Assembly: GCA_051011415.1 (NCBI GenBank)
Contig: JBPCTY010000060.1
Location: 10,781-74,780 of the forward strand
Length of the DNA: 64,000 bases
Direction: 5' to 3'
Source: Acidimicrobiia bacterium
Lineage (GTDB): Bacteria > Actinomycetota > Acidimicrobiia > Spongiisociales > UBA5794
Shown here: in pieces, positions 12,179 to 62,622 of the stretch
How positions within the stretch are numbered: the first letter of the stretch is position 1
Layout of the letters: the number at the start of each line of letters is the position of its first letter
The notes under the pieces: generated by a model
Seen by the model: only the letters and a program-made list of their open reading frames with translations
What the model was told of the DNA's origin: nothing
The model's database searches: none
Made by a program: the position numbers and the translations under genes

Positions 12179-12427
12179 TCAGCAGTCAGGGCCCCCGTTT
12201 TTACGTTCTTGTTGTATTAACGCTCGGAGTTGGTCGAAAAGTTCCTCAGGAGGAGCAGATTTTCCAGATTCGGCGATTTTTGTCTTCAGCGAACGCTCGA
12301 ACTCGTATGCATCGACACATCCGCCGCATCTCTTGAGATGCAGCGAAATACGTGCTCGGCGCGTCACAGTGAGCTCCTGATCGATGTACTGATATACGTA
12401 CTCGACTGCGTTTTCGCATCCGCTCAT
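12179..12427 (-). CDS. rsrA: Anti-sigma factor RsrA/RshA (zinc-associated anti-sigma, ZAS)
   Basis: H-x3-C-x2-C motif ([12 protein letters not shown]) plus an N-terminal Cys ([10 protein letters not shown]). A start at MSGCE gives an ATGA overlap with the sigH stop. Confidence 0.8.
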
Positions 12428-13020
12428 GGCGTTGGCTCCACTAGTCCGTGTTCGACTGCCAGGTTCCACAACTTCCTTTGGAGCGCTTTTCTTCCCCGAT
12501 GTAGCCGAGACATGACGGTTCCAATGGGAACATCAAGGATTTCGGCGATCTCTTTGTACGAGAATCCTTCGACATCCGCGTAGATCACCGGCAACCTGAA
12601 GTTCTCCGGCAGGCTTTCGATCGCCTCAACAATGTCCTCATCCACGAACATGTCGAGTGCTGTGCGTTCGGCACTCTCGCTTGCGCCAGATTGCTCGCCG
12701 AGCCTCCTGAACAAGTACATGTCCTGGAGCTCACCGAGCTCGACCTCACTCGGTCTTCGCTGCTTTTTGCGGTACTTGTTGATATAGGTGTTGGTGAGGA
12801 TGCGATACAGCCAAGCCTTGAGGTTCGTCCCGGCTTCGAACGAGTCGTAGGCCCGATAGGCCTTGAGGTAGGTCTCCTGAACGACATCCTCGGCGTCTGC
12901 AGGGTTGCGAGTCATGCGCAACGCAGCCGAGTACAGCTGCGGTGCGAATTCCATCGCATCTGCCTCAAAGGTTGCCTGGTCCGCCATGTCGCTGAGGGTA
13001 ACGACAGCACGGTGGTTCAC
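12424..13020 (-). CDS. sigH: ECF sigma factor SigH/SigR (thiol-oxidative stress)
   Basis: Near-identical to mycobacterial SigH blocks: [74 protein letters not shown]. Confidence 0.9.
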
Positions 13021-51281: not shown

Positions 51282-53789
51282 CTAGCGAAGCGCCTCGCCG
51301 ATGCGACGGGATTCACGGTCTCGCAGCTGTACACGAACCTCCAGCTGCTCAAGCCTCTGGCTCACCGACTTCTCGGCACCAGGCAGCGGCTGCTCTCTGA
51401 GGAAGGCTGCAATGCGGTCTGCGACTTCGGGTTCCGAACGGACCCATACGAAGTCCAACATGCGGTACACGTTGTTGGGTGGCATGACAGCGGTGACCTC
51501 GTCCCAACGACTCGTGATGGCCTCCCACGCACGAGCTCCGTTGTCTCTTTGGGCGATAAGCAGAGCGAACACCCAGAATGAGTCCTGGGATCGGATTTCG
51601 CCGTTGATAACCATCTCAACCATCCGTGCGGGCACCTGTGGATCCGGGACCGAGGCAGCGGCCCGAAGGTACTTCACGGTGAGCTGGGGTGTCGACGCTC
51701 CGGCTGACATTCGAAGGAATCTCTCGAAGTCTCCTATGTCTCCGTGCGATGCGGTGACCGAAAGGGCCGCATCGGCCACCTCTGCATCGACCTCGGCGTC
51801 GGCTGACATCTCGATTGAACGAGCCTGTGCGATTGTCTCACGATCGTCGCCGAGGTTGCCAAGCGCCTTCAGCAAGTGGCCACGAAGCGCACGCGTGCGG
51901 TCTGTGTCTTCAGCACCGACGTCCCATCCCAGCCGATCGGTCTGAGTGCCAACGAGATCCCGGGTGAATGACTGAAGCTTGCTGCGGTCATCGGACGACA
52001 CAACGCGGTCGAGCTCTCCAAGTCCGGCGAGGGCGATGGACCAAACATCCTTCTCGTCTTCGTCCTTCAACATCGAAATGAGCGAAAGGAATGCTGCTGA
52101 GGTCGTTGTTCCCGCAAGCAGGTTCGCATATGCATCCGACACCACAGACAAGCGCTCCAGCGGCGCAAGCTCGGGGAGTGACGCTTCGACCGACGCATAG
52201 AGCTCATTGTCATACGCAACCCGGAAGAACCCCTCTCCCCCGGTGTTGACCAACACGTTCGCACCAACATCCACAGTGACTGGTTCATCCTCGATGAGCA
52301 CCGATTGGGTGCCTTCGTCCGACGAGTAGATGACCGGGACCTTCCACGTCGATTCACCTTCGCCGAGATATCGGAACTGTCGCTGGGACATCGTCATCGT
52401 GTCGTCCCCCGAAGTGACGTCGATCACGGGGAACCCACCTTGAAAGATCCATGAGTTCATGATCTCTCCGACAGGCTCGTTAGACACGGCTTCAAGCGAC
52501 GCCCACAGATCTTCGTTGTCGGTGTTGGAAAACGAGTGTGTCTTCAGATAGTGAGATACGCCGGCACGGAACGTGTCCTCACCGAGGTACTGCTCGAGCA
52601 TCCGAAGGACTGACGAGCCCTTCTCATATGTGAGCACGTCAAACATCGCATCCGCCTCTGCAGGCGAAGCCACCGTGAACTCGATCGGCCGCGTTGCCTT
52701 GAGTGCATCGGTCTCCTGGCTGCGGGCCCTGTCAGTCGCGAAGAGCAGCCAGATATCCCATTCAGGACGCCACGCCTCGGTTGCCTTGTTCTCGGCAAAG
52801 GTGGCAAACGCCTCGTTCAGCCAGACACCGTTCCACCACTTCATCGTGACAAGATCGCCAAACCACATGTGGGCGATCTCGTGGGCGATGACGGTACCCA
52901 CACGAACCATTTCGCTCTGGGTAGCTGTTGCTTTGTCGATCAACAATGCTGTCTCGCGATACGTGATGCACCCGAGGTTCTCCATGGCGCCGAACGAGAA
53001 ATCGGGGATGGCGACCATGTCAAGCTTGTCACCCGGGTACGGCACGTCGTAATACTCAGCGAAGTAGCGCAGCGCATGCTCGCCGGCTTCGATGGCGAAG
53101 TCCGCCATATGCAGCTGCCCGGGCGGGGCGACGATGCGCAGCGGAACCCCATCCACATCGACCGGCTCCGTGAACTCGAATTCCCCGACGACGAAGGCAA
53201 CGAGGTAGGTCGACATCTTCATTGTCCTTGCGAAGACGACCTCGTCCTTGCCTCGGCCGACGGGTGTCCGTGAGACTTCAGATGCATTCGAGATAGCGGC
53301 GAGATCCTCCGGAACGACGAGCGTCACCTCGTAGGTTGCCTTGAGATCGGGCTCGTCCCAACAAGGGAAGGCCCTGCGCGCATCGGTTGACTCGAACTGG
53401 GTCGTGGCGATCACATGCTCGGCGCCCTCATCATCTGTGTAGGTCGACCGGTAGAAACCCCTGAGCAAGTCGTTCAGTTCGCCGGTGAATGCAATGTGGA
53501 CCACGGCACGACCAACGGGCAGCAGGTCAGCGGTCGTCAGGTGCAGCCGTTGGGCCGCTTCATCGAGCGACCATGTCGCATCGAAAAGCGCTCCATCGAC
53601 ATCGACAGCAGCTGACACGATCTCCAGATCAACGGCGTTGAGCGAGACCGAGGCTGTCGCCTCCACAACGTCGACGTCGATGGCAACCGACCCGGCAAAA
53701 GCCGCACGGTCCAGATCCGGCTCAAGATGGATCGCATAGTTGCTCGGAATGACGGTTCGCGGCAGTCGATAATCGGCTTCTGTTGGCAT
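51282..53789 (-). CDS. pepN: Aminopeptidase N (M1 family)
   Basis: GAMEN exopeptidase motif (FGAMEN) and zinc HExxH-x18-E (HEIAHMWFGDLVT...WLNEAFA). 835 aa. Confidence 0.95.
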   Translation of the reverse strand: MPTEADYRLPRTVIPSNYAIHLEPDLDRAAFAGSVAIDVDVVEATASVSLNAVDLEIVSAAVDVDGALFDATWSLDEAAQRLHLTTADLLPVGRAVVHIAFTGELNDLLRGFYRSTYTDDEGAEHVIATTQFESTDARRAFPCWDEPDLKATYEVTLVVPEDLAAISNASEVSRTPVGRGKDEVVFARTMKMSTYLVAFVVGEFEFTEPVDVDGVPLRIVAPPGQLHMADFAIEAGEHALRYFAEYYDVPYPGDKLDMVAIPDFSFGAMENLGCITYRETALLIDKATATQSEMVRVGTVIAHEIAHMWFGDLVTMKWWNGVWLNEAFATFAENKATEAWRPEWDIWLLFATDRARSQETDALKATRPIEFTVASPAEADAMFDVLTYEKGSSVLRMLEQYLGEDTFRAGVSHYLKTHSFSNTDNEDLWASLEAVSNEPVGEIMNSWIFQGGFPVIDVTSGDDTMTMSQRQFRYLGEGESTWKVPVIYSSDEGTQSVLIEDEPVTVDVGANVLVNTGGEGFFRVAYDNELYASVEASLPELAPLERLSVVSDAYANLLAGTTTSAAFLSLISMLKDEDEKDVWSIALAGLGELDRVVSSDDRSKLQSFTRDLVGTQTDRLGWDVGAEDTDRTRALRGHLLKALGNLGDDRETIAQARSIEMSADAEVDAEVADAALSVTASHGDIGDFERFLRMSAGASTPQLTVKYLRAAASVPDPQVPARMVEMVINGEIRSQDSFWVFALLIAQRDNGARAWEAITSRWDEVTAVMPPNNVYRMLDFVWVRSEPEVADRIAAFLREQPLPGAEKSVSQRLEQLEVRVQLRDRESRRIGEALR

Positions 53790-53910
53790 TTCGCTCCTGA
53801 CGGTTCGACAGGAAAGGTAGGGAGGATGGCCATACAGACTGCAGTTGCCTCATCGGGGCTATCTACGCATCGCTAGCGTTCCCCGCACAAACGAAAGGAC
53901 CAAGTACCAG

Positions 53911-54120
53911 ATGTGTCGATCGATTCACCGACTACGGGATGGGGCTGTCGTAGACGACCGTGAGGCCATGGAGGAAGCCGCACGCCAGTATGTCCGGAAG
54001 GTCTCTGGATTCGGGAAGCCTGCTGCGCACAATCGAGAGGCCTTCAACCAAGCCGTCGTCGAAATCACGGATGCGACGGAACGGCTGATGGGGAGACTCG
54101 TCGTGCGTGGCGCACGCTGA
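53911..54120 (+). CDS. Small DUF2277-like protein (starts at MCRSIH)
   Basis: The MCR(S/N)I N-terminus and ~70-aa length match my recollection of DUF2277. The upstream part of the listed ORF is probably non-coding. Confidence 0.45.
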   Translation: MCRSIHRLRDGAVVDDREAMEEAARQYVRKVSGFGKPAAHNREAFNQAVVEITDATERLMGRLVVRGAR

Positions 54121-54125
54121 GCTCG

Positions 54126-54758
54126 CTAGCGATTCTCGATTTCGCCAGTCGAAATCTCGCCAATGGTCTCGCCAAGAATGATCTGATCGAGCGTTCGTGA
54201 CAGCAGGGCGTAGCTGACGGGGCCAGACACCTTTCCGACGACAATTCCGCTCCGGTCAACGAAGAAGGTTTCGGGTAGACCGAGCACACCCCACTCGAAA
54301 GCAGTCGCTGACCCTTCATCGAGCGCATACACGGTTGCGTCACTGACACCGAGTTCTGCAAGGAAGCCGTCCGCGTTGGAAGCCGAGTCCTGATAGTTGA
54401 CTGCGATAAAGGTGGTACCGAGTTCCGAGTAATCCTCCGCACCAGCAACGAGTGCCGCATGCTCTTGACGGCAGGCCAAACACCACGACGCCCAGAAGTT
54501 CACCACCACAATGTCACCTGCATGGTCGGCAACACTCACCGTGCCGTCTTCGTATTGCAGCGCCATCTCGCCTGTCGGAGCGGCTTCACCGATGAGCGGC
54601 GACGATGAGAGCGTCGGGTCTGATCCGAAACGGCTGGCAAAGACGATTCCGACGAGGATGAAGATCGCAGCACCTGCGATCGCTACCCAGGCCATCCTTG
54701 CGCCTCTGGCTTGCGGCTCGGCGCCAGGTCCATGCTGCTCGCTGTCCGCTGCCATCAC
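54126..54758 (-). CDS. ccmG: Thiol:disulfide oxidoreductase CcmG/DsbE/ResA-like (membrane-anchored thioredoxin fold)
   Basis: N-terminal TM, then a CxxC thioredoxin motif VVNFWASWCLACRQE. Last gene of the ccm operon, with an ATGA overlap to ccmI. Confidence 0.75.
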   Translation of the reverse strand: MMAADSEQHGPGAEPQARGARMAWVAIAGAAIFILVGIVFASRFGSDPTLSSSPLIGEAAPTGEMALQYEDGTVSVADHAGDIVVVNFWASWCLACRQEHAALVAGAEDYSELGTTFIAVNYQDSASNADGFLAELGVSDATVYALDEGSATAFEWGVLGLPETFFVDRSGIVVGKVSGPVSYALLSRTLDQIILGETIGEISTGEIENR

Positions 54759-55525
54759 TGGCTCTCAATCTGTGCGAGCAGAGCCACCACGCCATCTCGA
54801 ATCTCATCAGGAAGATCCGGTTCTCGTGCGAGAGCAAGGAGCAAGGGGACTGCTTCCGATGGGCGATCGAGAGTTACGAGGACGTTTGCGATGAACCATT
54901 GCGCAGGGAGGTAGTCGGGCTGGCGTTCGAGGGCTCTTTCGAGATAACCGAGCGCTACGTCTGGTCTTCCGGACAGGTAGGTCATCCAACCGACGTTTGC
55001 GAGTGCTTCCGGATGTCGTTCACGATCCGGTATCTCGAAGTAGTGATCGAGCGCCTTGTCGAATTCGCCTTCCTCGAAGTATCGGCGCGCAAGTGCAAGG
55101 CGCATCCCGATGACGTCGGGGTTCTGGGCGACGACCTCTTCCATCTGCTCATTCGAAATCTCAGACAGATCGACATCGCTGCCGTCGTCGAGCGCCTCAC
55201 TCGCCACACCCTCTGCGCCTTGCGTCGTGCCGTCCTCGAGCGAAACAACAGCGAGAACACCGATCGCAACGATGGCTACCCCAACGAGGACTGCACCAAG
55301 CAATGCCCTGGTCGAGATTCTCGTCGAGACAACCAGTGAAGAGGCTGAGTCGGATTCTGGAGGTGTGGCTTCGGTTGATTCAAGGGCTGCCAGCTCGCCC
55401 TCATACCGGCTGCGCAGATTCGCGGCGGTGTCGGAATCGAGATCCCCGGCGTCGACCTGGACCTGAAGATCGGCAAGCTCTTCTTTGAGTAGGGCGATCT
55501 GATCAGCTGCACCGGACGTACTCAT
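54755..55525 (-). CDS. ccmI: CcmI/CycH-like TPR protein of System I cytochrome c maturation
   Basis: One TM followed by TPR-like repeats (ALARRYFEEGEFDKALDHYFEI...ALGYLERALERQPDY). Overlaps the ccmH stop (ATGA). Confidence 0.6.
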   Translation of the reverse strand: MSTSGAADQIALLKEELADLQVQVDAGDLDSDTAANLRSRYEGELAALESTEATPPESDSASSLVVSTRISTRALLGAVLVGVAIVAIGVLAVVSLEDGTTQGAEGVASEALDDGSDVDLSEISNEQMEEVVAQNPDVIGMRLALARRYFEEGEFDKALDHYFEIPDRERHPEALANVGWMTYLSGRPDVALGYLERALERQPDYLPAQWFIANVLVTLDRPSEAVPLLLALAREPDLPDEIRDGVVALLAQIESQ

Positions 55526-55941
55526 GCGTCCGCTCCATCGCGTGTTCGAGAGCTTCGTCGCATCGACCCAAGCACGACAGCGCCGCCGATCAAGACCCCA
55601 ACGGGAACGGCCCACAGAGCTGCGGACCAGCGCAGCCTTCCCGAATCAAGCACGTAGCTCTCTCCGAAGTTCTCTGCGAACTCGTCGAGAATCTCATCGT
55701 CCGTGTAGCCATCGGCAACGAGGTCGGCAATCAGGATCCGGTAGTCGCCCGCGACACCAGAAGCCGAATCAGCAAGCGACTCACCGTTGCAAAATGGGCA
55801 CTTGATCTGACCGGACAGCGAAGCGACCCGTTCTTCAGCAGTGGGCTCTGATCTGTCGCCCGAGGCCAAACCAGCCACGATCACGACAAGCGCGACGGCA
55901 CCGAGGACGATCGCGATGATGTTCTTTGTCTTCTCAGGCAT
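55522..55941 (-). CDS. ccmH: Cytochrome c-type biogenesis protein CcmH (NrfF-like)
   Basis: CxxC-containing motif IKCPFCNGESLADSASGVA (compare CcmH RCPxCQNQSLxES), with TM helices on both sides. Confidence 0.75.
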   Translation of the reverse strand: MPEKTKNIIAIVLGAVALVVIVAGLASGDRSEPTAEERVASLSGQIKCPFCNGESLADSASGVAGDYRILIADLVADGYTDDEILDEFAENFGESYVLDSGRLRWSAALWAVPVGVLIGGAVVLGSMRRSSRTRDGADA

Positions 55942-57967
55942 CAGTATCCGCCGTACCAACGTTGTCCGCTTTGTTCTTTGACGCTGGTGGACCCCTGAGG
56001 GGTTTCCGCAAAGCGGCAAGTACACCACCGGCTACGACGACGAATCCACCGAACCAGAGCAGCCACTGCAGCGGGAAGACAAACACGTTGAGATCGACCT
56101 CTTCAGCGTTCCCCCCTGCGATCCCGATGTACACGTCGTCGATAACACCCGTCCAGACATCCGGCGTTCCAATTGGCTGTGGCACTCCGCGGTAGGTGTG
56201 CAGTCTTGGCTCAAGAACTGCCTTGGTCGAGGAGCATGACTCGTCGAGCACGGCGACCCTCACGCCGACCACCTCACGGTTGGCTTCCGATCGTGAGAAT
56301 GGCTCGACGTATGAAATGCAATGTCCTGCCACGACCGCCGACTCCCCCGGCGCCAATGTGACTACGTCACGGACAGCGAGTCCGTTCGAGGTAGCAAGGC
56401 TGACCGCAACGAGCGCAATTCCGATGTGTGCGAGTTGACCACCCCAATAGCCAGCATCGTTCCGAACGACCTTCGCTGCGGCACGGTCGAACCGCTCCGG
56501 GCGTGCTCCGACGACCGCTGCGAAACGAAACCCAATCGCCGAGACGACGAAGGCCGCAAGAGCGATCGTCAACACAACCGCCCACGACGACACACCGAAC
56601 AGCACGGCAGCAGCGCCGCTACCAAGACCGACGATGACGGGCCATCGCAGTCGCTGCCACATGACGTGTGCAGTGGCAACGCGCCAAGGAGCGACCGATC
56701 CGAGACCTATCAGGAGCAACAGCATCAGCGCAAGCGGAACCGCTGCACGATCGAAGAAGGACCGGCCGACCGACACCTCCGATCCTGACGTTGCCTGCAC
56801 GATGAGGGGATACATCGTGCCAAAGAGCACCGCGATCGTGAACACCGTGAGCACAAGGTTGTTGAACAGGATGTAGCCCTCTCGCGACGACAACGAGTCG
56901 AGGCGGGGAACCTGTGCGATGTCCTTCGCCCGCCACACGAACAGGCCGAGCGAGCCAACGACGACGATCGCAAGGAAGATCAAGAGCGCAGGCCCCACCG
57001 CGGATTGGGTGAAGGCGTGAACCGACGCGATGACGCCAGATCTGGTCAGGAAGGTGCCGAAGATCGTCAGCGAGAATGTGGCGATGACGAGGATGAAGTT
57101 CCATGCCTGAAGCATGCCTCGCTTTCGCTGAACGATTGCTGAGTGGATGAAGGCAGTTGCGGTCAGCCACGGCAGGAAGGCCGCGTTCTCGACTGGATCC
57201 CAGGCCCAGTACCCACCCCACCCGAGGACTTCGTAGCTCCACCAGCCCCCGAGCACGATTCCCGCAGTGAGAAAGATCCACGCGATCAGGGTCCAACGGT
57301 GGGTGCGGTCAAGCCAGGACCGCCCCACATCACCTCGTATGAGCGCTGCGATTGCAAAGGCGAAGGGAACTGTGAGCCCGACGTATCCGAAGTACAGGAG
57401 CGGAGGATGCACCGCCATCAGGATGTGGTTCTGGAGCAGCGGGTTCGGGCCCCTCCCGTCGGAAGGCGAAGATACATCTGCAAGCGGCCACCAGGACGAT
57501 GAGGCACAGGCATTCCCGATCGCCTCGGTACACACCGCAAACGGATTGCCACCGGTTGCCATCAGACCGAACCAGAAGATTGCCACTGCACCCATGACAC
57601 CGAGCGCCGCAGTACCGAGGTGGTCTGTGTCGGCCAGCGTCCTCCACACCAGAAACACGAATACTGCAAGAACGACGCCCCACAGCACGATGGAGCCTTC
57701 GAGGGCTGCCCAGCCTGCGGCCAGCAGAAATATGAACGGTGTGGCTGTCGCAGTGTTGTTGGCAACGTATGCGATCGAGAAGTCATGGCTGAGAATCGCT
57801 ACTTCGAGCAGGAGGAAGGCTGCGACGGCCGAACCGAGAAGGATGAGTACTGGAATCTTGAGAGCGGACTTTGCACCAACGGAGTAGGTACGAACCGCTT
57901 GGATGACGACAGCGAATGATGCTGCAAGAGCGGTAACCACCGCTGCGTTTCCGAGGACGGCGATCAC
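55934..57967 (-). CDS. ccmF: Cytochrome c-type biogenesis protein CcmF (haem lyase component)
   Basis: WWD domain WGGYWAWDPVENAAFLPWL and many TM helices. 677 aa. Confidence 0.9.
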   Translation of the reverse strand: MIAVLGNAAVVTALAASFAVVIQAVRTYSVGAKSALKIPVLILLGSAVAAFLLLEVAILSHDFSIAYVANNTATATPFIFLLAAGWAALEGSIVLWGVVLAVFVFLVWRTLADTDHLGTAALGVMGAVAIFWFGLMATGGNPFAVCTEAIGNACASSSWWPLADVSSPSDGRGPNPLLQNHILMAVHPPLLYFGYVGLTVPFAFAIAALIRGDVGRSWLDRTHRWTLIAWIFLTAGIVLGGWWSYEVLGWGGYWAWDPVENAAFLPWLTATAFIHSAIVQRKRGMLQAWNFILVIATFSLTIFGTFLTRSGVIASVHAFTQSAVGPALLIFLAIVVVGSLGLFVWRAKDIAQVPRLDSLSSREGYILFNNLVLTVFTIAVLFGTMYPLIVQATSGSEVSVGRSFFDRAAVPLALMLLLLIGLGSVAPWRVATAHVMWQRLRWPVIVGLGSGAAAVLFGVSSWAVVLTIALAAFVVSAIGFRFAAVVGARPERFDRAAAKVVRNDAGYWGGQLAHIGIALVAVSLATSNGLAVRDVVTLAPGESAVVAGHCISYVEPFSRSEANREVVGVRVAVLDESCSSTKAVLEPRLHTYRGVPQPIGTPDVWTGVIDDVYIGIAGGNAEEVDLNVFVFPLQWLLWFGGFVVVAGGVLAALRKPLRGPPASKNKADNVGTADTDA

Positions 57968-58374
57968 GCTTCGGGGCAGGCGTGGTCTGTCTCGTCGTAG
58001 TCCTCGTAATCAGTTCGGTACTGCTCGTCGTGCTTCACGAGCATCGTGTCTGAAGAGAAGATGGATCCGTCCCACTCGCCCTCGACGACCACGCCGATGC
58101 CTTCTGCAAACAGCTGCGGGGGTGTGCCTGTATGTGCGACGGCGACAAACGTCTCGCAATCCTCGACATCGAACGTCACGACACCGTCGCCGTCGACGAC
58201 CGATCCGGGAACGACTCGTCCACCGAGCCTGATGCGTTCATCGCTTCCTTCCTCTGCGACAAGCTCAGTCGGCGTATGGAAATAGACAAGCGCGCTACTC
58301 AAGTTGACCATCAGAACGACAAGTGCAACGACGATGACCAGCGCGGGGATCACAAACTTGGCGTACCGTTTCAT
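57964..58374 (-). CDS. ccmE: Cytochrome c-type biogenesis protein CcmE (haem chaperone)
   Basis: N-terminal TM, OB fold, and haem-binding H-x3-Y motif LVKHDEQY. Confidence 0.85.
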   Translation of the reverse strand: MKRYAKFVIPALVIVVALVVLMVNLSSALVYFHTPTELVAEEGSDERIRLGGRVVPGSVVDGDGVVTFDVEDCETFVAVAHTGTPPQLFAEGIGVVVEGEWDGSIFSSDTMLVKHDEQYRTDYEDYDETDHACPEA

Positions 58375-58502
58375 GCGTCCTCTTCAAGCACGCTCTTGGC
58401 ACGGGTGATCCGGATTGCGATTGATGCAACGTACGCAACAAGGACCGTGTAGGTGAAGCCGTAGGCAAGCAGTACCCAGTTCCATTCGGTTGCGGTATCC
58501 AT
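58371..58502 (-). CDS. ccmD: Haem exporter protein CcmD (43 aa; below the ORF-track cut-off)
   Basis: Manual translation gives MDTATEWNWVLLAYGFTYTVLVAYVASIAIRITRAKSVLEEDA: a single TM with a basic C-terminal flank. Its ATG overlaps the ccmC stop and its TGA overlaps the ccmE ATG. Confidence 0.7.
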   Translation of the reverse strand: MDTATEWNWVLLAYGFTYTVLVAYVASIAIRITRAKSVLEEDA

Positions 58503-59236
58503 CAGCCACCCCCTTCAACGTTCGGCGTGGTCACAGCCTCACCAGCCAACGGAGCATCATCGCCGTAGGTGCGTTCGGTGATTGCGTCTTCGAGTCGGCC
58601 GAGTTCGATGCGCTTGAACATCATTGCGACGTACATCGCGGTGAACGCAACAACGGCAATCAACAGAGTGACGACGATCTCGGTATCCATGTCGATCGGT
58701 TCGGGCTTCAGGATTGAAGGTGGTTGATGGAGAGTGCGCCACCATGTCACTGAGAAGTGCACCAGCGGAACCTGGACGACTGCGATGACACCAAGGATCG
58801 CTGAGCGCTTCGCTCGTGATTCGAGATCGTTCGTCGTTCGTCTGAGTGCGAGGTACCCGATATAGACGAAGAACATGATTGCGGTGAGGGTGAGTCGTGC
58901 ATCCCACGTCCACCACACCCCCCACGTCGGTTTCGCCCAGATCATGCCAAGGCCGAGTGCCATCCCGGTGAACACGACGCCAATCTCAGCCGATGCGTGG
59001 GCACGCCTGTCCCATGCGAGGTCCTTCTTCCAGAGGTACATCGCAGAAGCAAGCATCGTGACGATGAACGCCAAGTAGGCCAACCACGCGGCCGGCACAT
59101 GGACGTAGAGAATTCGCGACAACTCACCTTGACGGGCGTCCGGACCGACCGTCATCGAAGCGACGAACGTGACCAGTCCAGCAATTGCCATGACGATCCA
59201 TGGCCAGGTCGTTGTGGAGTGTTCCCGGGATGTCAT
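58502..59236 (-). CDS. ccmC: Haem exporter protein CcmC
   Basis: WWD motif WGVWWTWDARLT, ~6 TM. 244 aa. Confidence 0.9.
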   Translation of the reverse strand: MTSREHSTTTWPWIVMAIAGLVTFVASMTVGPDARQGELSRILYVHVPAAWLAYLAFIVTMLASAMYLWKKDLAWDRRAHASAEIGVVFTGMALGLGMIWAKPTWGVWWTWDARLTLTAIMFFVYIGYLALRRTTNDLESRAKRSAILGVIAVVQVPLVHFSVTWWRTLHQPPSILKPEPIDMDTEIVVTLLIAVVAFTAMYVAMMFKRIELGRLEDAITERTYGDDAPLAGEAVTTPNVEGGG

Positions 59237-59901
59237 CCGGTCTCCTGCAGGGGTCGGGCTGAGAGCACTCCCGCAACCGCCAGTAGTAGCACTGTGACGA
59301 CCATCAGGAGTACCCAGCTAAGGCTACTGCGACCAAGCCGTAAGGCTTCCAGCGCCTGGGTTGCGCCGATCAGGAGAGGGATCGAGAGCGGAGCGACCAA
59401 CAGGGGAACAAGCGCAGCAGCGTTTCCACCAGTTGAAGCGATTCCAGCGGCGAGGGTTCCCAGCAGCGCCAACCCTGCTCCAACGATGACGAAGGTCACA
59501 GGCAACTGCCAAAGTCCAGCGACCTCGACGTCATACAGAAGGACGGCAACAACGCCGAGCACTGCCTGGAACACCAGCAGGTAGAGGAAGCTCGCACCAG
59601 CCCTGCCAACGAACACCGCTGCAGGATCCAACCCGGACAACGCAACCTGATCTCGCTGCGACTGGGTCTCGCTCGATGTCTGACGGATCGCGATGAGCAC
59701 CCCGAAGAGCATGACCACGACCCAGTACAGCCCCGCACCGATGCGTTGGAGCGTCGGGACATCCGTGCCGATCGCGATCGGGATCAAAAGCAGTGCGATG
59801 GCCCCGAAAGGCAGAGTGATCCAGATCACCTCGCCAGCCCGTCGTTCTCGAAGCAGATCGCGACGCATCACCGACGACGCTTGGTGCCAGAAGCCGGTCA
59901 T
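59233..59901 (-). CDS. ccmB: Haem exporter permease CcmB
   Basis: ~6 TM, CcmB-like length and N-terminus. Overlaps ccmA and ccmC by 4 nt each. Confidence 0.8.
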   Translation of the reverse strand: MTGFWHQASSVMRRDLLRERRAGEVIWITLPFGAIALLLIPIAIGTDVPTLQRIGAGLYWVVVMLFGVLIAIRQTSSETQSQRDQVALSGLDPAAVFVGRAGASFLYLLVFQAVLGVVAVLLYDVEVAGLWQLPVTFVIVGAGLALLGTLAAGIASTGGNAAALVPLLVAPLSIPLLIGATQALEALRLGRSSLSWVLLMVVTVLLLAVAGVLSARPLQETG

Positions 59902-60539
59902 ACGAGATTCCCTCCGGCGACCTCGAAGGTACGGTCGGCAACGTTGAGCACTCGCTCCTTGTCATGCGAAACCAAGACTGCTGCGCCACCCTGCGATGCT
60001 GTTCGTTGGACGAGAGAGTCGACCAGATCGATGGCATCGGCGTCGAGGGCAGAGTGTGGCTCGTCCAGCAGAAGGAGATCCGGTCTGGTCATCAGGACGC
60101 GGGCAAACTCCGCCCGACGCTGCATGCCGTGACTGCATTGATCTGCAAGCCGCCGCGAGGCTCCTTCAAGACCGACAGCAGCAAGGCTCTTCTCGACGAC
60201 GGCGTCGTCGAGGCCACGAGCTCGGGCCATGAACGACAGGTTTTCGGAGAGGGTTAGTTCGCCGTAGAGCCCGGGGACGTGTCCCACATATCCGATGTTC
60301 TGCCGAACGTCGTATCGCTCTTGGCTCGATAGCTGTGCTCCGAGGACAGACCCTGAGCCGGCGGAGGGCCGAATCAGCGTTGCGAGCAACCTGAGAAGTG
60401 TCGTCTTTCCGGCGCCGTTCGAGCCGAAGACGCCGACGATCTCGCCAGGTTCAACCCGTAGGTCAACGGTGCGGAGAATCTGGAGCGAGCCGGCACGAAC
60501 GGAAACCCCGTCGAGGACTACAAGAGATGGTGTGGACAC
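59898..60539 (-). CDS. ccmA: Haem exporter ATP-binding protein CcmA
   Basis: Walker A GSNGAGKTTLLRLLA, ABC signature LSHGMQRR, Walker B LLLLDEP. 213 aa. Confidence 0.85.
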   Translation of the reverse strand: MSTPSLVVLDGVSVRAGSLQILRTVDLRVEPGEIVGVFGSNGAGKTTLLRLLATLIRPSAGSGSVLGAQLSSQERYDVRQNIGYVGHVPGLYGELTLSENLSFMARARGLDDAVVEKSLAAVGLEGASRRLADQCSHGMQRRAEFARVLMTRPDLLLLDEPHSALDADAIDLVDSLVQRTASQGGAAVLVSHDKERVLNVADRTFEVAGGNLV

Positions 60540-60598
60540 GTTGTGAGTCTACGAGGGCTCACATCTTGGCATGGCCCTTGGAACAGCCGATCAACGCC

Positions 60599-60988
60599 TC
60601 AGACGGCTGGTTGATCTTCTTCCTCTGATGCGATCTCCTTGCGGATCTCATCCATGTCCAAATCCTTGATCTGGCCGATGAGGTCCTCGAGGGCCTCTTC
60701 GGGTAGCGCACCCGGCTGAGAGAAGACTCCGATCTGGTCGCGGAACGCGACGAGGGTGGGAATCGATCGAATCCCAAACCCGGCTGCCAGCTCCTGCTCC
60801 GCCTCGGTATCGACCTTTGCGAACGCGATCTTCAGATCATCGTTCTGATAACGCTCGGACACCTTCTCATAGGTCGGGCCAAACATGCGACAAGGACCGC
60901 ACCATTCCGCCCAGAAATCGATGAGCACGATGTCATTGCTTTCGATTGTCTCGTGCAGGCTCTCCTGCGTGATGTCAATGGTTGCCAT
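60599..60988 (-). CDS. trxA: Thioredoxin
   Basis: WCGPC active site (FWAEWCGPCRMF) on a thioredoxin fold, plus an acidic C-terminal tail. Confidence 0.9.
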   Translation of the reverse strand: MATIDITQESLHETIESNDIVLIDFWAEWCGPCRMFGPTYEKVSERYQNDDLKIAFAKVDTEAEQELAAGFGIRSIPTLVAFRDQIGVFSQPGALPEEALEDLIGQIKDLDMDEIRKEIASEEEDQPAV

Positions 60989-61017
60989 TGTGAAACTCCG
61001 TGGTGTGTGTCAGGGAT

Positions 61018-61043
61018 TCAACCCGTTGACAACAACGGTATTC
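61018..61043 (-). promoter_or_regulatory. Candidate SigH/SigR-type promoter (GGAAT-N17-GTTG) upstream of trxA and the ccm operon
   Basis: The minus-strand sequence reads cgtgacGGAATaccgttgttgtcaacggGTTGaatccc. The GTT lies ~34 nt upstream of the trxA ATG. It matches the actinobacterial SigR/SigH consensus GGAAT-N17-18-GTT. Confidence 0.45.
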
Positions 61044-61066
61044 CGTCACGAGGCTATCGCCATCCC

Positions 61067-61291
61067 TTACTGATCTGAGCCCAGCTCCTTCATAAACCCG
61101 GCGAGTTCGGTTTGCGCCGCCTCAAGATTGTCCCGGTCAACCATCACCGACACGCGATATGCGCCCATGATTCCTGGGTCGGTTACGACCGAGGAAGGAA
61201 TCCCTGCCTCCATCAGCAGTCCCCACGCCTCATCTGCATGGTCACGAGTGGTGAACACCGCAGCAGCCGCCATTTCACCAAGGGCACCCAT
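61067..61291 (-). CDS. Small DUF2007-like protein (starts at MGALGEMAAAA)
   Basis: ~74 aa with a beta-alpha-beta pattern (AVFTTRDHADEAWGLLMEAGIPS...). Stop is adjacent to the pmbA start. Confidence 0.45.
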   Translation of the reverse strand: MGALGEMAAAAVFTTRDHADEAWGLLMEAGIPSSVVTDPGIMGAYRVSVMVDRDNLEAAQTELAGFMKELGSDQ

Positions 61292-62622
61292 CAGCCGTCG
61301 ACACCTCCGGTGAACTTCCACGATCCGAGCCGCATCGATGGTGCATGGATGAAGGTCGGCCCGAACTCCGAGTCCGCAAAACGATCATCGTTCCCGATGT
61401 CGAGCACATTTCCTGCGCCGAGGGCGTCCACAAACGACTGGGTGAACCGCAGGTTCGAAACTGCATCGGTGATGCGACCGTTCTCGATCATGAAGGTGCC
61501 ATTTCTCGTCAGGCCGGTCACGACGAGTGACTTTGGGTCGAGCACCCTGCAGTAGTTGAACGTTGACACATAGATGCCTCGGTCGACTGAGGCGATCAAG
61601 TCATCCGCAGCCGTGTCTCCACCACCAACAAACATGTTCCACGCAAACGGGCCAAAAGCTTCGGCTCCCTGCGCAGCGTGTCCTGTCGACGCAACCCCAG
61701 CCTTTGCCGCAGTTCGCCGGTTGTGCACGAGGCTGCGCGTCACTCCGGATGACACGAGATCGACCTTGCGCTTTGGTGTCCCCTCAACGTCGAAAGGAGC
61801 AAACAGGGCTCTTGGGTCCGTCGCATCGTCCCAAATGTTGACCTGGTCATCGAACTGGGACTCGCCGAGTTCCACGAAGGACATACCTTCTTCGTGAACC
61901 TTTGCGTTGAAGCCATATGCATCGAGGAACACTGCGATCGTCGCAACGCACTCGGGTGAGAGCACTACCTCGTATTCGCCTGGTTTTGCATCGAATGGGT
62001 TCATCGAATCTGTTGCTCGGGTCGCAGCCAATGATCCAACGGCGTGCGCATCAATGGCGTCAAGCGAGACTCCAGCAGCATGGCCAGAGCCTGCGGACTG
62101 CCCGGTCTGGTGGATGCCATCGAGGATGGCGGTGGTGTATCGCCCGGATACGGTGCGCCCCTCGGTATTCCCATATGCATGAGCACGCCCCTCGGTTTGG
62201 CAATACCCGGCTGCAGACAGCCCTCCACCTGCATCGACAAACTGCTTGACCTTCTCTGCCCTTGCGACCGGGTCTGCTGTCGCGGTGGCCTCGTCAAAGT
62301 GCTCGACCGTTGGCGGGTCGACAACTCCACCCAGACCGGGCCAATTGTCGTCCACCGGCTGATCTGCCGCGAGTTCGATCGTTGAATCGACCAATCGCTC
62401 GAGCGCATCGGTCGTGACAACGGTCCCCGTGGCACTTGCGATCCGGCCATCCCTCGCGACACGCACGGATACCTGAGATGCGTCTTCGGACACGTTCTGG
62501 TGGATGAAGGAATTCGCAAATCGGGTGAGGGATGACTCCCCAACGTCGGCATACACCTCAGCGTCTGCCCGATCTCCGACCATCTCCAGGGCTGCGTCCA
62601 CGAGTTGGCGTTCGTTGCTCAT
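61291..62622 (-). CDS. pmbA: TldE/PmbA-family metalloprotease-like protein (start at MSNERQLVD)
   Basis: TldD/PmbA fold; pairs with tldD upstream (overlap ATGA). The listed 517-aa ORF has an Arg-rich 5' extension that is unlikely to be coding. Confidence 0.75.
   Translation of the reverse strand: MSNERQLVDAALEMVGDRADAEVYADVGESSLTRFANSFIHQNVSEDASQVSVRVARDGRIASATGTVVTTDALERLVDSTIELAADQPVDDNWPGLGGVVDPPTVEHFDEATATADPVARAEKVKQFVDAGGGLSAAGYCQTEGRAHAYGNTEGRTVSGRYTTAILDGIHQTGQSAGSGHAAGVSLDAIDAHAVGSLAATRATDSMNPFDAKPGEYEVVLSPECVATIAVFLDAYGFNAKVHEEGMSFVELGESQFDDQVNIWDDATDPRALFAPFDVEGTPKRKVDLVSSGVTRSLVHNRRTAAKAGVASTGHAAQGAEAFGPFAWNMFVGGGDTAADDLIASVDRGIYVSTFNYCRVLDPKSLVVTGLTRNGTFMIENGRITDAVSNLRFTQSFVDALGAGNVLDIGNDDRFADSEFGPTFIHAPSMRLGSWKFTGGVDG

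Follow-up and report, generated by a model that had tools for sequence, protein, structure and literature searches.

The closest described counterparts of the locus reported here are the System I operon of Escherichia coli, ccmABCDEFGH (NC_000913 b2201-b2194), the structurally solved CcmF of Thermus thermophilus, and the cytochrome c maturation (ccm) operon carried by plasmid pPaSha1 of Pseudonocardia alni; alongside them stands System II of Mycobacterium, Corynebacterium and Bacillus (ResB/CcsB plus ResC/CcsA, CcdA and ResA), which performs the same haem ligation to CxxCH outside the membrane. The textbook distribution of the two systems is summarised in PMC9145763. In this work, we describe a complete and intact System I (Ccm) operon of nine consecutive reading frames at positions 54126-60539, minus strand, of a 64,000-nucleotide (nt) stretch from an Acidimicrobiia bacterium (assembly GCA_051011415.1, contig JBPCTY010000060.1), the whole of which is called the window below. 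Judging from its sequence, we assign a probability of about 0.88 to the reading that the bacterium inherited this System I operon vertically, as a native one, and that the operon would work as the canonical pathway.

The window proteins and those of E. coli are reciprocal best matches for CcmA (43% identity, E = 5e-30), CcmB (31%), CcmC (37%), CcmE (36%), CcmF (32%), the N-terminal domain of CcmH (29%, E = 5e-15) and CcmG (34%, E = 3e-20), with the same WWD, His, HxxxY and CxxC motifs and with genes that are likewise tightly packed and overlapping in E. coli. The window order is A-B-C-D-E-F-H-TPR-G, and where E. coli has a fused CcmH, the window has a short CcmH followed by a separate TPR protein. 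CcmD, 69 amino acids (aa) long in E. coli, is represented in the window by a 43-aa candidate without BLAST similarity to it, and, unlike the E. coli operon, that of the window does not adjoin nap genes. The best solved relative of the window CcmF is that of T. thermophilus (PDB 6ZMQ; E = 8e-109), with a match that runs nearly end to end and includes long identical stretches, although Thermus belongs to another phylum (Deinococcota) and groups in our tree with Gemmatimonadota and a second Acidimicrobiales clade, not with the clade of the window. System II also uses a WWD-domain protein and a ResA-like reductase of the thioredoxin fold, and the window CcmC and CcmF match the model TIGR03144 weakly, but System II is without the CcmE chaperone, CcmAB and the C-terminal domain of CcmF.

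An identical architecture of overlapping genes is found on pPaSha1 (NZ_CP052772.1, 66.6-74.0 kb; locus L083 of our comparison), in the order ABC ATPase, CcmB, CcmC, a 40-aa 'hypothetical' open reading frame (ORF), CcmE, CcmF, CcmH, TPR protein and redoxin, and it is chromosomal in Pseudonocardia, Haloechinothrix, Klenkia and Tersicoccus; the CcmF proteins of pPaSha1 and of the chromosomal actinomycete copies are 45-49% identical to that of the window. The plasmid, a mobilizable replicon of 385 kb from the class Actinomycetes, has ccdA divergent beside the operon and ctaD and a P-type ATPase gene downstream, whereas the window lacks all of these neighbours. A plasmid of Iamia sp. SCSIO 61187 (L082), a cultured member of the Acidimicrobiia, carries TlpA-CcmF-TlpA-CcdA beside ArsR and a P-type ATPase.

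The genes of the operon are listed here in the order of transcription, each overlap being with the preceding gene:

59898-60539, minus strand: ccmA, GTG start, 213 aa, no overlap; ATP-binding cassette (ABC) ATPase of the haem-release complex; MGI9666328.1.
59233-59901, minus strand: ccmB, 222 aa, 4-nt overlap; ABC membrane subunit; MGI9666327.1, 'heme exporter protein CcmB'.
58502-59236, minus strand: ccmC, 244 aa, 4-nt overlap; haem-handling protein with a WWD domain.
58371-58502, minus strand: 43-aa ORF, probable CcmD, 1-nt overlap (TGATG); single helix; MGI9666325.1, 'hypothetical protein'.
57964-58374, minus strand: ccmE, 136 aa, 4-nt overlap; membrane-anchored haem chaperone with HxxxY of the His type.
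55934-57967, minus strand: ccmF, 677 aa, 4-nt overlap; haem lyase.
55522-55941, minus strand: ccmH, 139 aa, 8-nt overlap; CPFC thiol-redox partner of CcmF; MGI9666322.1.
54755-55525, minus strand: TPR gene in the CcmI position, 256 aa, 4-nt overlap; membrane-anchored.
54126-54755, minus strand: ccmG, 209 aa, 1-nt overlap; DsbE-type thiol:disulfide oxidoreductase with WCLAC; MGI9666320.1, 'TlpA family protein disulfide reductase'.

The ORF list and the GenBank proteins bear out a preliminary description of this DNA, which had placed nine consecutive minus-strand System I genes here and called the system complete. Its statement that neighbouring genes overlap by 4-8 nt holds for six junctions, while at the two others, into the 43-aa ORF and into ccmG, the overlap is 1 nt only. 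The eight overlaps of 1-8 nt suggest one translationally coupled unit, and no catalytic motif is disrupted. The longest ORFs of ccmH, the TPR gene and ccmG overrun the true starts, and the starts were picked from the junctions; an exact-sequence look-up returned GenBank proteins of exactly the chosen lengths under consecutive accessions, MGI9666320 to MGI9666329. All nine genes are already known as calls in GenBank: five of them have System I names there (CcmA, CcmB, CcmE, CcmF and CcmH), ccmC appears as CcsA, ccmG as a TlpA-family reductase, the TPR gene as a TPR protein and the 43-aa ORF as a hypothetical protein.

The identity of the core proteins (CcmA, CcmB, CcmC, CcmE, CcmF, CcmH and the DsbE/CcmG-type redoxin) is backed by Pfam and NCBIfam matches with E from 1e-20 to 1e-107. 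CcmA scores 153.2 bits with TIGR01189 (cutoff 131.6), and CcmB scores 79.5 bits with PF03379 (cutoff 24.9; E = 3e-22) and 46.5 bits, under the cutoff, with TIGR01190. CcmC matches PF01578 (117.5 bits, E = 8e-34) and falls slightly short of the cutoff of 186 with TIGR01191 (175.5 bits, E = 1e-51); aligned with the E. coli CcmC chain 7F02_C (E = 2e-29), it keeps the histidine of YVHVPAA, the WWD motif WGVWWTWDARLT and the histidine of LVHFSVTWW. In CcmF, PF16327 (190.8 bits, E = 5e-56) and PF01578 (111.6 bits) are matched, TIGR00353 reaches 360.8 bits under a cutoff of 569, and an alignment of 12 relatives shows the WWD motif to be invariant together with His187, His275, His317 and His514, which we take to be the counterparts of the haem-ligand histidines of E. 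coli CcmF. CcmH (PF03918, 74.1 bits, cutoff 25, E = 9e-21) carries CPFC, and a CPxC motif is found in nearly all of its orthologues; the motif of CcmG persists across orthologues as well. CcmG itself exceeds the cutoffs of Redoxin and AhpC-TSA, scores 91 bits with TIGR00385 (E = 6e-26; cutoff 123 bits), and has, after WCLAC, the segment GLPETFF, presumably the motif that is conserved in CcmG beyond the active site. The motifs quoted in the preliminary description are all present and line up with functional residues of the solved E. coli and Thermus proteins. Since equivalog scores are under cutoffs, CcmB, CcmC, CcmF and CcmG are divergent members of their families, and nothing in the sequences of the core proteins suggests loss of function.

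CcmE matches PF03100 (83.4 bits, E = 2e-23), its KHDEQY faces KHDENY of E. coli CcmE in the structure-sequence alignment with 8CE8_E, and HxxxY of the His type is kept in 72 of 72 CcmE orthologues examined. At its C-terminus (57964-57990), beyond HxxxY, there is also a His-x-Cys element, DHACPEA in the window and HACS, HSCS or HTCT in relatives, which is common to the closest clade (L001-L008 and L020) and absent from more distant orthologues.

The two remaining genes call for more caution. The 43-aa ORF scores 13.1 bits with the CcmD family PF04995 (E = 0.1; cutoff 25.6), and no CcmD chain came up when the PDB was searched with a profile built from the small ORFs. About 60 related loci have, after ccmC and before ccmE, an ORF of 33-47 aa with one hydrophobic helix, a W-x-W-V-x3-Y-x3-Y pattern and a basic tail rich in R/K, and 11 of 35 orthologues match PF04995, by far the commonest family (best E = 2e-4). 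From its sequence and place, the ORF is probably a divergent CcmD. The preliminary description had named ccmD at this spot and had called it unlisted; the ORF is there, but it is in GenBank, and only the CcmD name is new. The TPR protein has a membrane anchor and matches TPR_19 (E = 2e-12) along with other, generic TPR families; its Pfam and NCBIfam matches include no CcmI model, and BLAST gives no significant match to the C-terminal domain of E. coli CcmH. A TPR homologue stands after ccmH in the great majority of loci, so that architecture and conserved place would fit the CcmI role: of the earlier label 'CcmI/CycH-like', the TPR domains, anchor and position stand, and a match to a CcmI model does not.

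If these proteins act as their counterparts do, then at the external surface of the membrane CcmC and the small CcmD would present haem to the anchored CcmE, which would bind it covalently via the His of HxxxY and be released in its holo form by the CcmAB ATPase. CcmF, CcmH and the TPR protein would then take the haem and ligate it to the CxxCH cysteines of apocytochromes, which CcmG and CcmH would keep reduced, with reducing power drawn from cytoplasmic thioredoxin via a CcdA- or DsbD-type transporter encoded outside the window.

The window CcmF is 100% identical to a protein of the GenBank entry 'MAG: Acidimicrobiia bacterium' (MAG, metagenome-assembled genome); among the matches listed, the next 119 relatives are 63-77% identical, and all the named ones are Acidimicrobiia or Actinomycetota MAGs. 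In a scan with one genome per species, at least 596 GTDB species genomes have a CcmF relative, and the best 80 of these supplied the loci for synteny and labels: 48 are Acidimicrobiia (including Microthrixaceae and Spongiisociaceae), 15 are uncultured Actinomycetota, five are named Actinomycetes (Pseudonocardia twice, Haloechinothrix, Tersicoccus and Klenkia), five are unlabelled and seven bear other phylum names. A distant 'Acidimicrobiales' CcmF used as query added at least 120 further clusters from the same taxa, and a Pseudonocardia CcmF recovered annotated CcmF in many cultured genera, among them Pseudonocardia, Amycolatopsis, Prauserella, Saccharomonospora, Saccharopolyspora, Actinopolyspora, Lentzea, Blastococcus and one Streptomyces. 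A full-text literature search returned no paper on System I in Acidimicrobiia, and silence there does not equal absence from the literature. The guess of an 'Acidimicrobiia-like' lineage in the preliminary description was right. Its view of the operon as taxonomically unusual does not survive, as the same operon in the same order occurs in dozens of Acidimicrobiia species genomes and System I is, by the CcmF species scan, the norm across the class; its premise, System II in place of System I in Actinobacteria, was too broad, because CcmF is annotated in Acidimicrobiia MAGs and in many cultured Actinomycetes. The locus is an ordinary, already annotated operon, normal for Acidimicrobiia, and this norm, like the native composition and clade placement described below, is an outcome that the preliminary description had itself named as counting against its view.

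Four of the loci (L022, L043, L055 and L070) are labelled Gemmatimonadales, Acidobacteriota or Burkholderiales, while their ccm operons nest among actinobacterial sequences, and L022 keeps most of the window flanking genes at a different spacing; these are likely mis-binned or mislabelled MAG contigs.

The order A-B-C-(D)-E-F-H-TPR-G recurs in 45 untruncated loci (tblastn, 80 loci), and truncated contigs fit it. The nearest ~17 loci also retain most of the flanks, namely tldD/pmbA, an 84-aa ORF (orf84), trxA, DUF2277 and pepN, with identities of the flanking genes (52-69%) that drop in step with those of the ccm genes. The G+C content (GC) is flat across the window; the ccm genes have a GC of 0.592 and a third-position GC (GC3) of 0.663, against 0.600 +/- 0.017 and 0.665 +/- 0.032 for the other 51 window ORFs. 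In a neighbour-joining tree of CcmF (77 sequences plus E. coli and Thermus), the window protein lies deep inside a large Acidimicrobiia clade, within which the cultured Actinomycetes form one subclade; E. coli falls far outside, and a second 'Acidimicrobiales' clade, whose genes run ABCEFGH(I), sits nearer to Gemmatimonadota and Thermus. The wider neighbourhood is one of housekeeping synteny: Pfam scans of the other 50 long window ORFs confirm the synteny given in the preliminary description, with coaX, panC, folK, folP, ftsH, hpt, tilS, an extracytoplasmic function (ECF) sigma gene with an HxxxCxxC anti-sigma gene, holB, tmk, topA and tad-like genes.

Upstream of ccmA lie three further features that bear on its expression:

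60546-60551, minus strand: -10-like hexamer TAGACT, 6 nt before the ccmA GTG.
60599-60988, minus strand: trxA, thioredoxin of 129 aa, here on the same strand as ccmA and 59 nt ahead of it; MGI9666329.1, 'thioredoxin'.
61020-61044, minus strand: SigH/ECF-type promoter motif ahead of trxA, GGAAT-N17-GTT, as seen in the sequence itself.

The trxA assignment rests on TIGR01068 (102 bits, over cutoff). The motif at 61044-61020 lies 31 nt before the trxA ATG, and 15 of 16 related loci have a GGAATA-N16-18-(C/G)GTT pattern ahead of trxA, so that the SigH-type promoter motif noticed earlier is real and conserved. An ECF sigma gene (12424-13020) and, downstream of it, a small ORF with HLKRCGGC, the HxxxCxxC zinc anti-sigma motif, form a pair at 12179-13020 (minus strand) that is consistent with a SigH/RshA type. 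In all 16 relatives, trxA lies on the opposite strand, divergent from ccmA, and only in the window are the two co-directional; the segment of trxA with its SigH-type promoter (60599-61044) is thus inverted relative to the 16 Acidimicrobiia loci (e.g., L001 4925-5435, L003 and L007). Inverted repeats at 60555-60565/61072-61082 were considered as a mechanism for the inversion and rejected: at 11 nt with one mismatch, among 21 similar pairs, they are at chance level.

Before ccmA itself there is no SigH-type motif but a TANNNT -10 box instead. A TANNNT-N5-9-start arrangement precedes ccmA in 30 of 55 loci, compared with 1.4 +/- 1.2 in shuffles; the -10-like hexamers in the upstream regions of L001-L068 are mostly TACACT or TAGACT, and 12 further loci have TTGA-N~18-TGAGACT at the same place. 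A consensus scan of 53700-61400 found no sigma-70 promoter, and it took the comparison of loci to reveal the -10 box; terminator-like sites in the same interval are not above shuffle expectation. Many transcripts in Actinobacteria are leaderless, and a leaderless ccm mRNA is suggested here because the conserved -10 box lies 6 nt before the ccmA GTG. Transcription would most likely start at this box, and the operon probably has a promoter of its own, predicted from the box, with a leaderless mRNA that starts at ccmA.

Set against the native, vertically inherited operon are three other explanations. A recent horizontal transfer that brought the operon into a System II actinobacterium, with Proteobacteria or Deinococcota as the Gram-negative source, would agree with the textbook distribution cited above and with the presence of ccm genes on actinobacterial plasmids, both on the mobilizable pPaSha1 (MOBF type) and, as ccmF, on the Iamia plasmid; yet the composition is native, the same operon and most of its flanks recur in the nearest ~17 loci with identities falling in step, CcmF is only 32% identical to that of E. 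coli and has hundreds of Acidimicrobiia sequences as its closest relatives, and no mobile-element genes stand beside the operon. We regard such a transfer as highly improbable and already largely refuted, and the horizontal acquisition that the preliminary description had entertained leaves no sign in GC and GC3, in flanks common to relatives or in the nesting of CcmF within the Acidimicrobiia clade. A second explanation gives the genome two systems: a System II (ResB/CcsA + CcdA) that serves the respiratory cytochromes and, beside it, the present operon as a specialised one, for example for cytochromes that are multihaem or have atypical sites, in the manner of NrfEFG. CcmF and CcmH do also match the NrfE and NrfF models, ccmF-H-I-G adjoins ORFs with 4-12 CxxCH in several Acidimicrobiia loci, and the orders of the ccm-bearing cultured Actinomycetes are classically regarded as System II users. 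We nonetheless find this explanation doubtful, given a full ccmABCDE haem-delivery module at a stable chromosomal position across the class, no nrfA or multihaem gene near the operon in the window, and Pfam scans that found neither ResB (PF05140) nor a further CcsA-type protein on any scanned ORF of the 64-kb window. The third explanation concerns expression: ccm would be driven by the SigH-type promoter of trxA, which would place cytochrome maturation in the thiol-stress regulon of this genome, as the preliminary description had proposed. Here, trxA and GGAAT-N17-GTT do face ccmA across the 59-nt gap, a sigH/rshA-like pair is encoded in the window, and read-through from trxA into ccm is possible in this genome because no terminator-like site came out of a pattern scan of that gap. 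Any such coupling would be genome-specific, because trxA is on the opposite strand in the 16 related loci, and ccmA retains its own conserved -10 box; read-through is not a conserved design, the proposed tie to the thiol-stress regulon does not hold as a conserved feature, and we consider it unlikely that SigH drives ccm even in this genome.

Several observations weigh against the reading of the locus as a native, canonical System I operon. The codon-usage r of the ccm genes is 0.915, as against 0.949 +/- 0.015 in control gene sets, about 2 standard deviations low, which we attribute to the amino acid composition of membrane proteins as a putative cause. The CcmF tree comes without support values and with only two outside references, so that, with outgroup sampling this thin, it serves only to exclude recent import. 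Equivalog-level NCBIfam scores of CcmB, CcmC, CcmF and CcmG are under their cutoffs, as noted above, and the CcmD and CcmI candidates are short of family thresholds. Finally, the scanned long ORFs of the 64-kb window include no CcdA/DsbD, and the window holds no c-type cytochrome substrate, with CxxCH in none of the chosen ORFs; the pathway is therefore incomplete within 64 kb, and the reductant transporter and the cytochrome substrates must be encoded elsewhere.

Eleven of the other Acidimicrobiia loci (L010, L011, L021, L024, L025, L027, L037, L042, L044, L045 and L048) have ORFs with 4-12 CxxCH, i.e., multihaem cytochromes, adjoining ccm genes. In six of these eleven, only ccmF-H-I-G is adjacent, without ccmABCE, and this may be a second dedicated lyase set.

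Four points emerge for annotation and for the biology of the class. (i) CcmD is the probable identity of the 'hypothetical' ORF that sits between ccmC and ccmE in the window, and of its counterparts across Actinomycetota, and the TPR gene that follows ccmH can be annotated as the partner in the CcmI position. (ii) System I is widespread in Acidimicrobiia and present in many cultured Actinomycetes, and 'Actinobacteria use System II' is therefore unfit as a rule for recognising novelty. (iii) Leaderless expression of ccm is suggested by the -10 box that stands immediately before ccmA across the class. (iv) We offer, as a tentative view on the lesser side of even odds, that Acidimicrobiia rely solely on System I, having lost System II, that System I is ancient in Actinomycetota with no proteobacterial import, and that plasmid-borne copies with this architecture seeded the scattered ccm operons of Pseudonocardiales, Geodermatophilales and Micrococcaceae. 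If true, this would do away with System II as the rule for Gram-positive bacteria, and it would provide a compact monoderm System I, with a CcmD of 33-47 aa and a CcmH split from its TPR protein, for comparative study.

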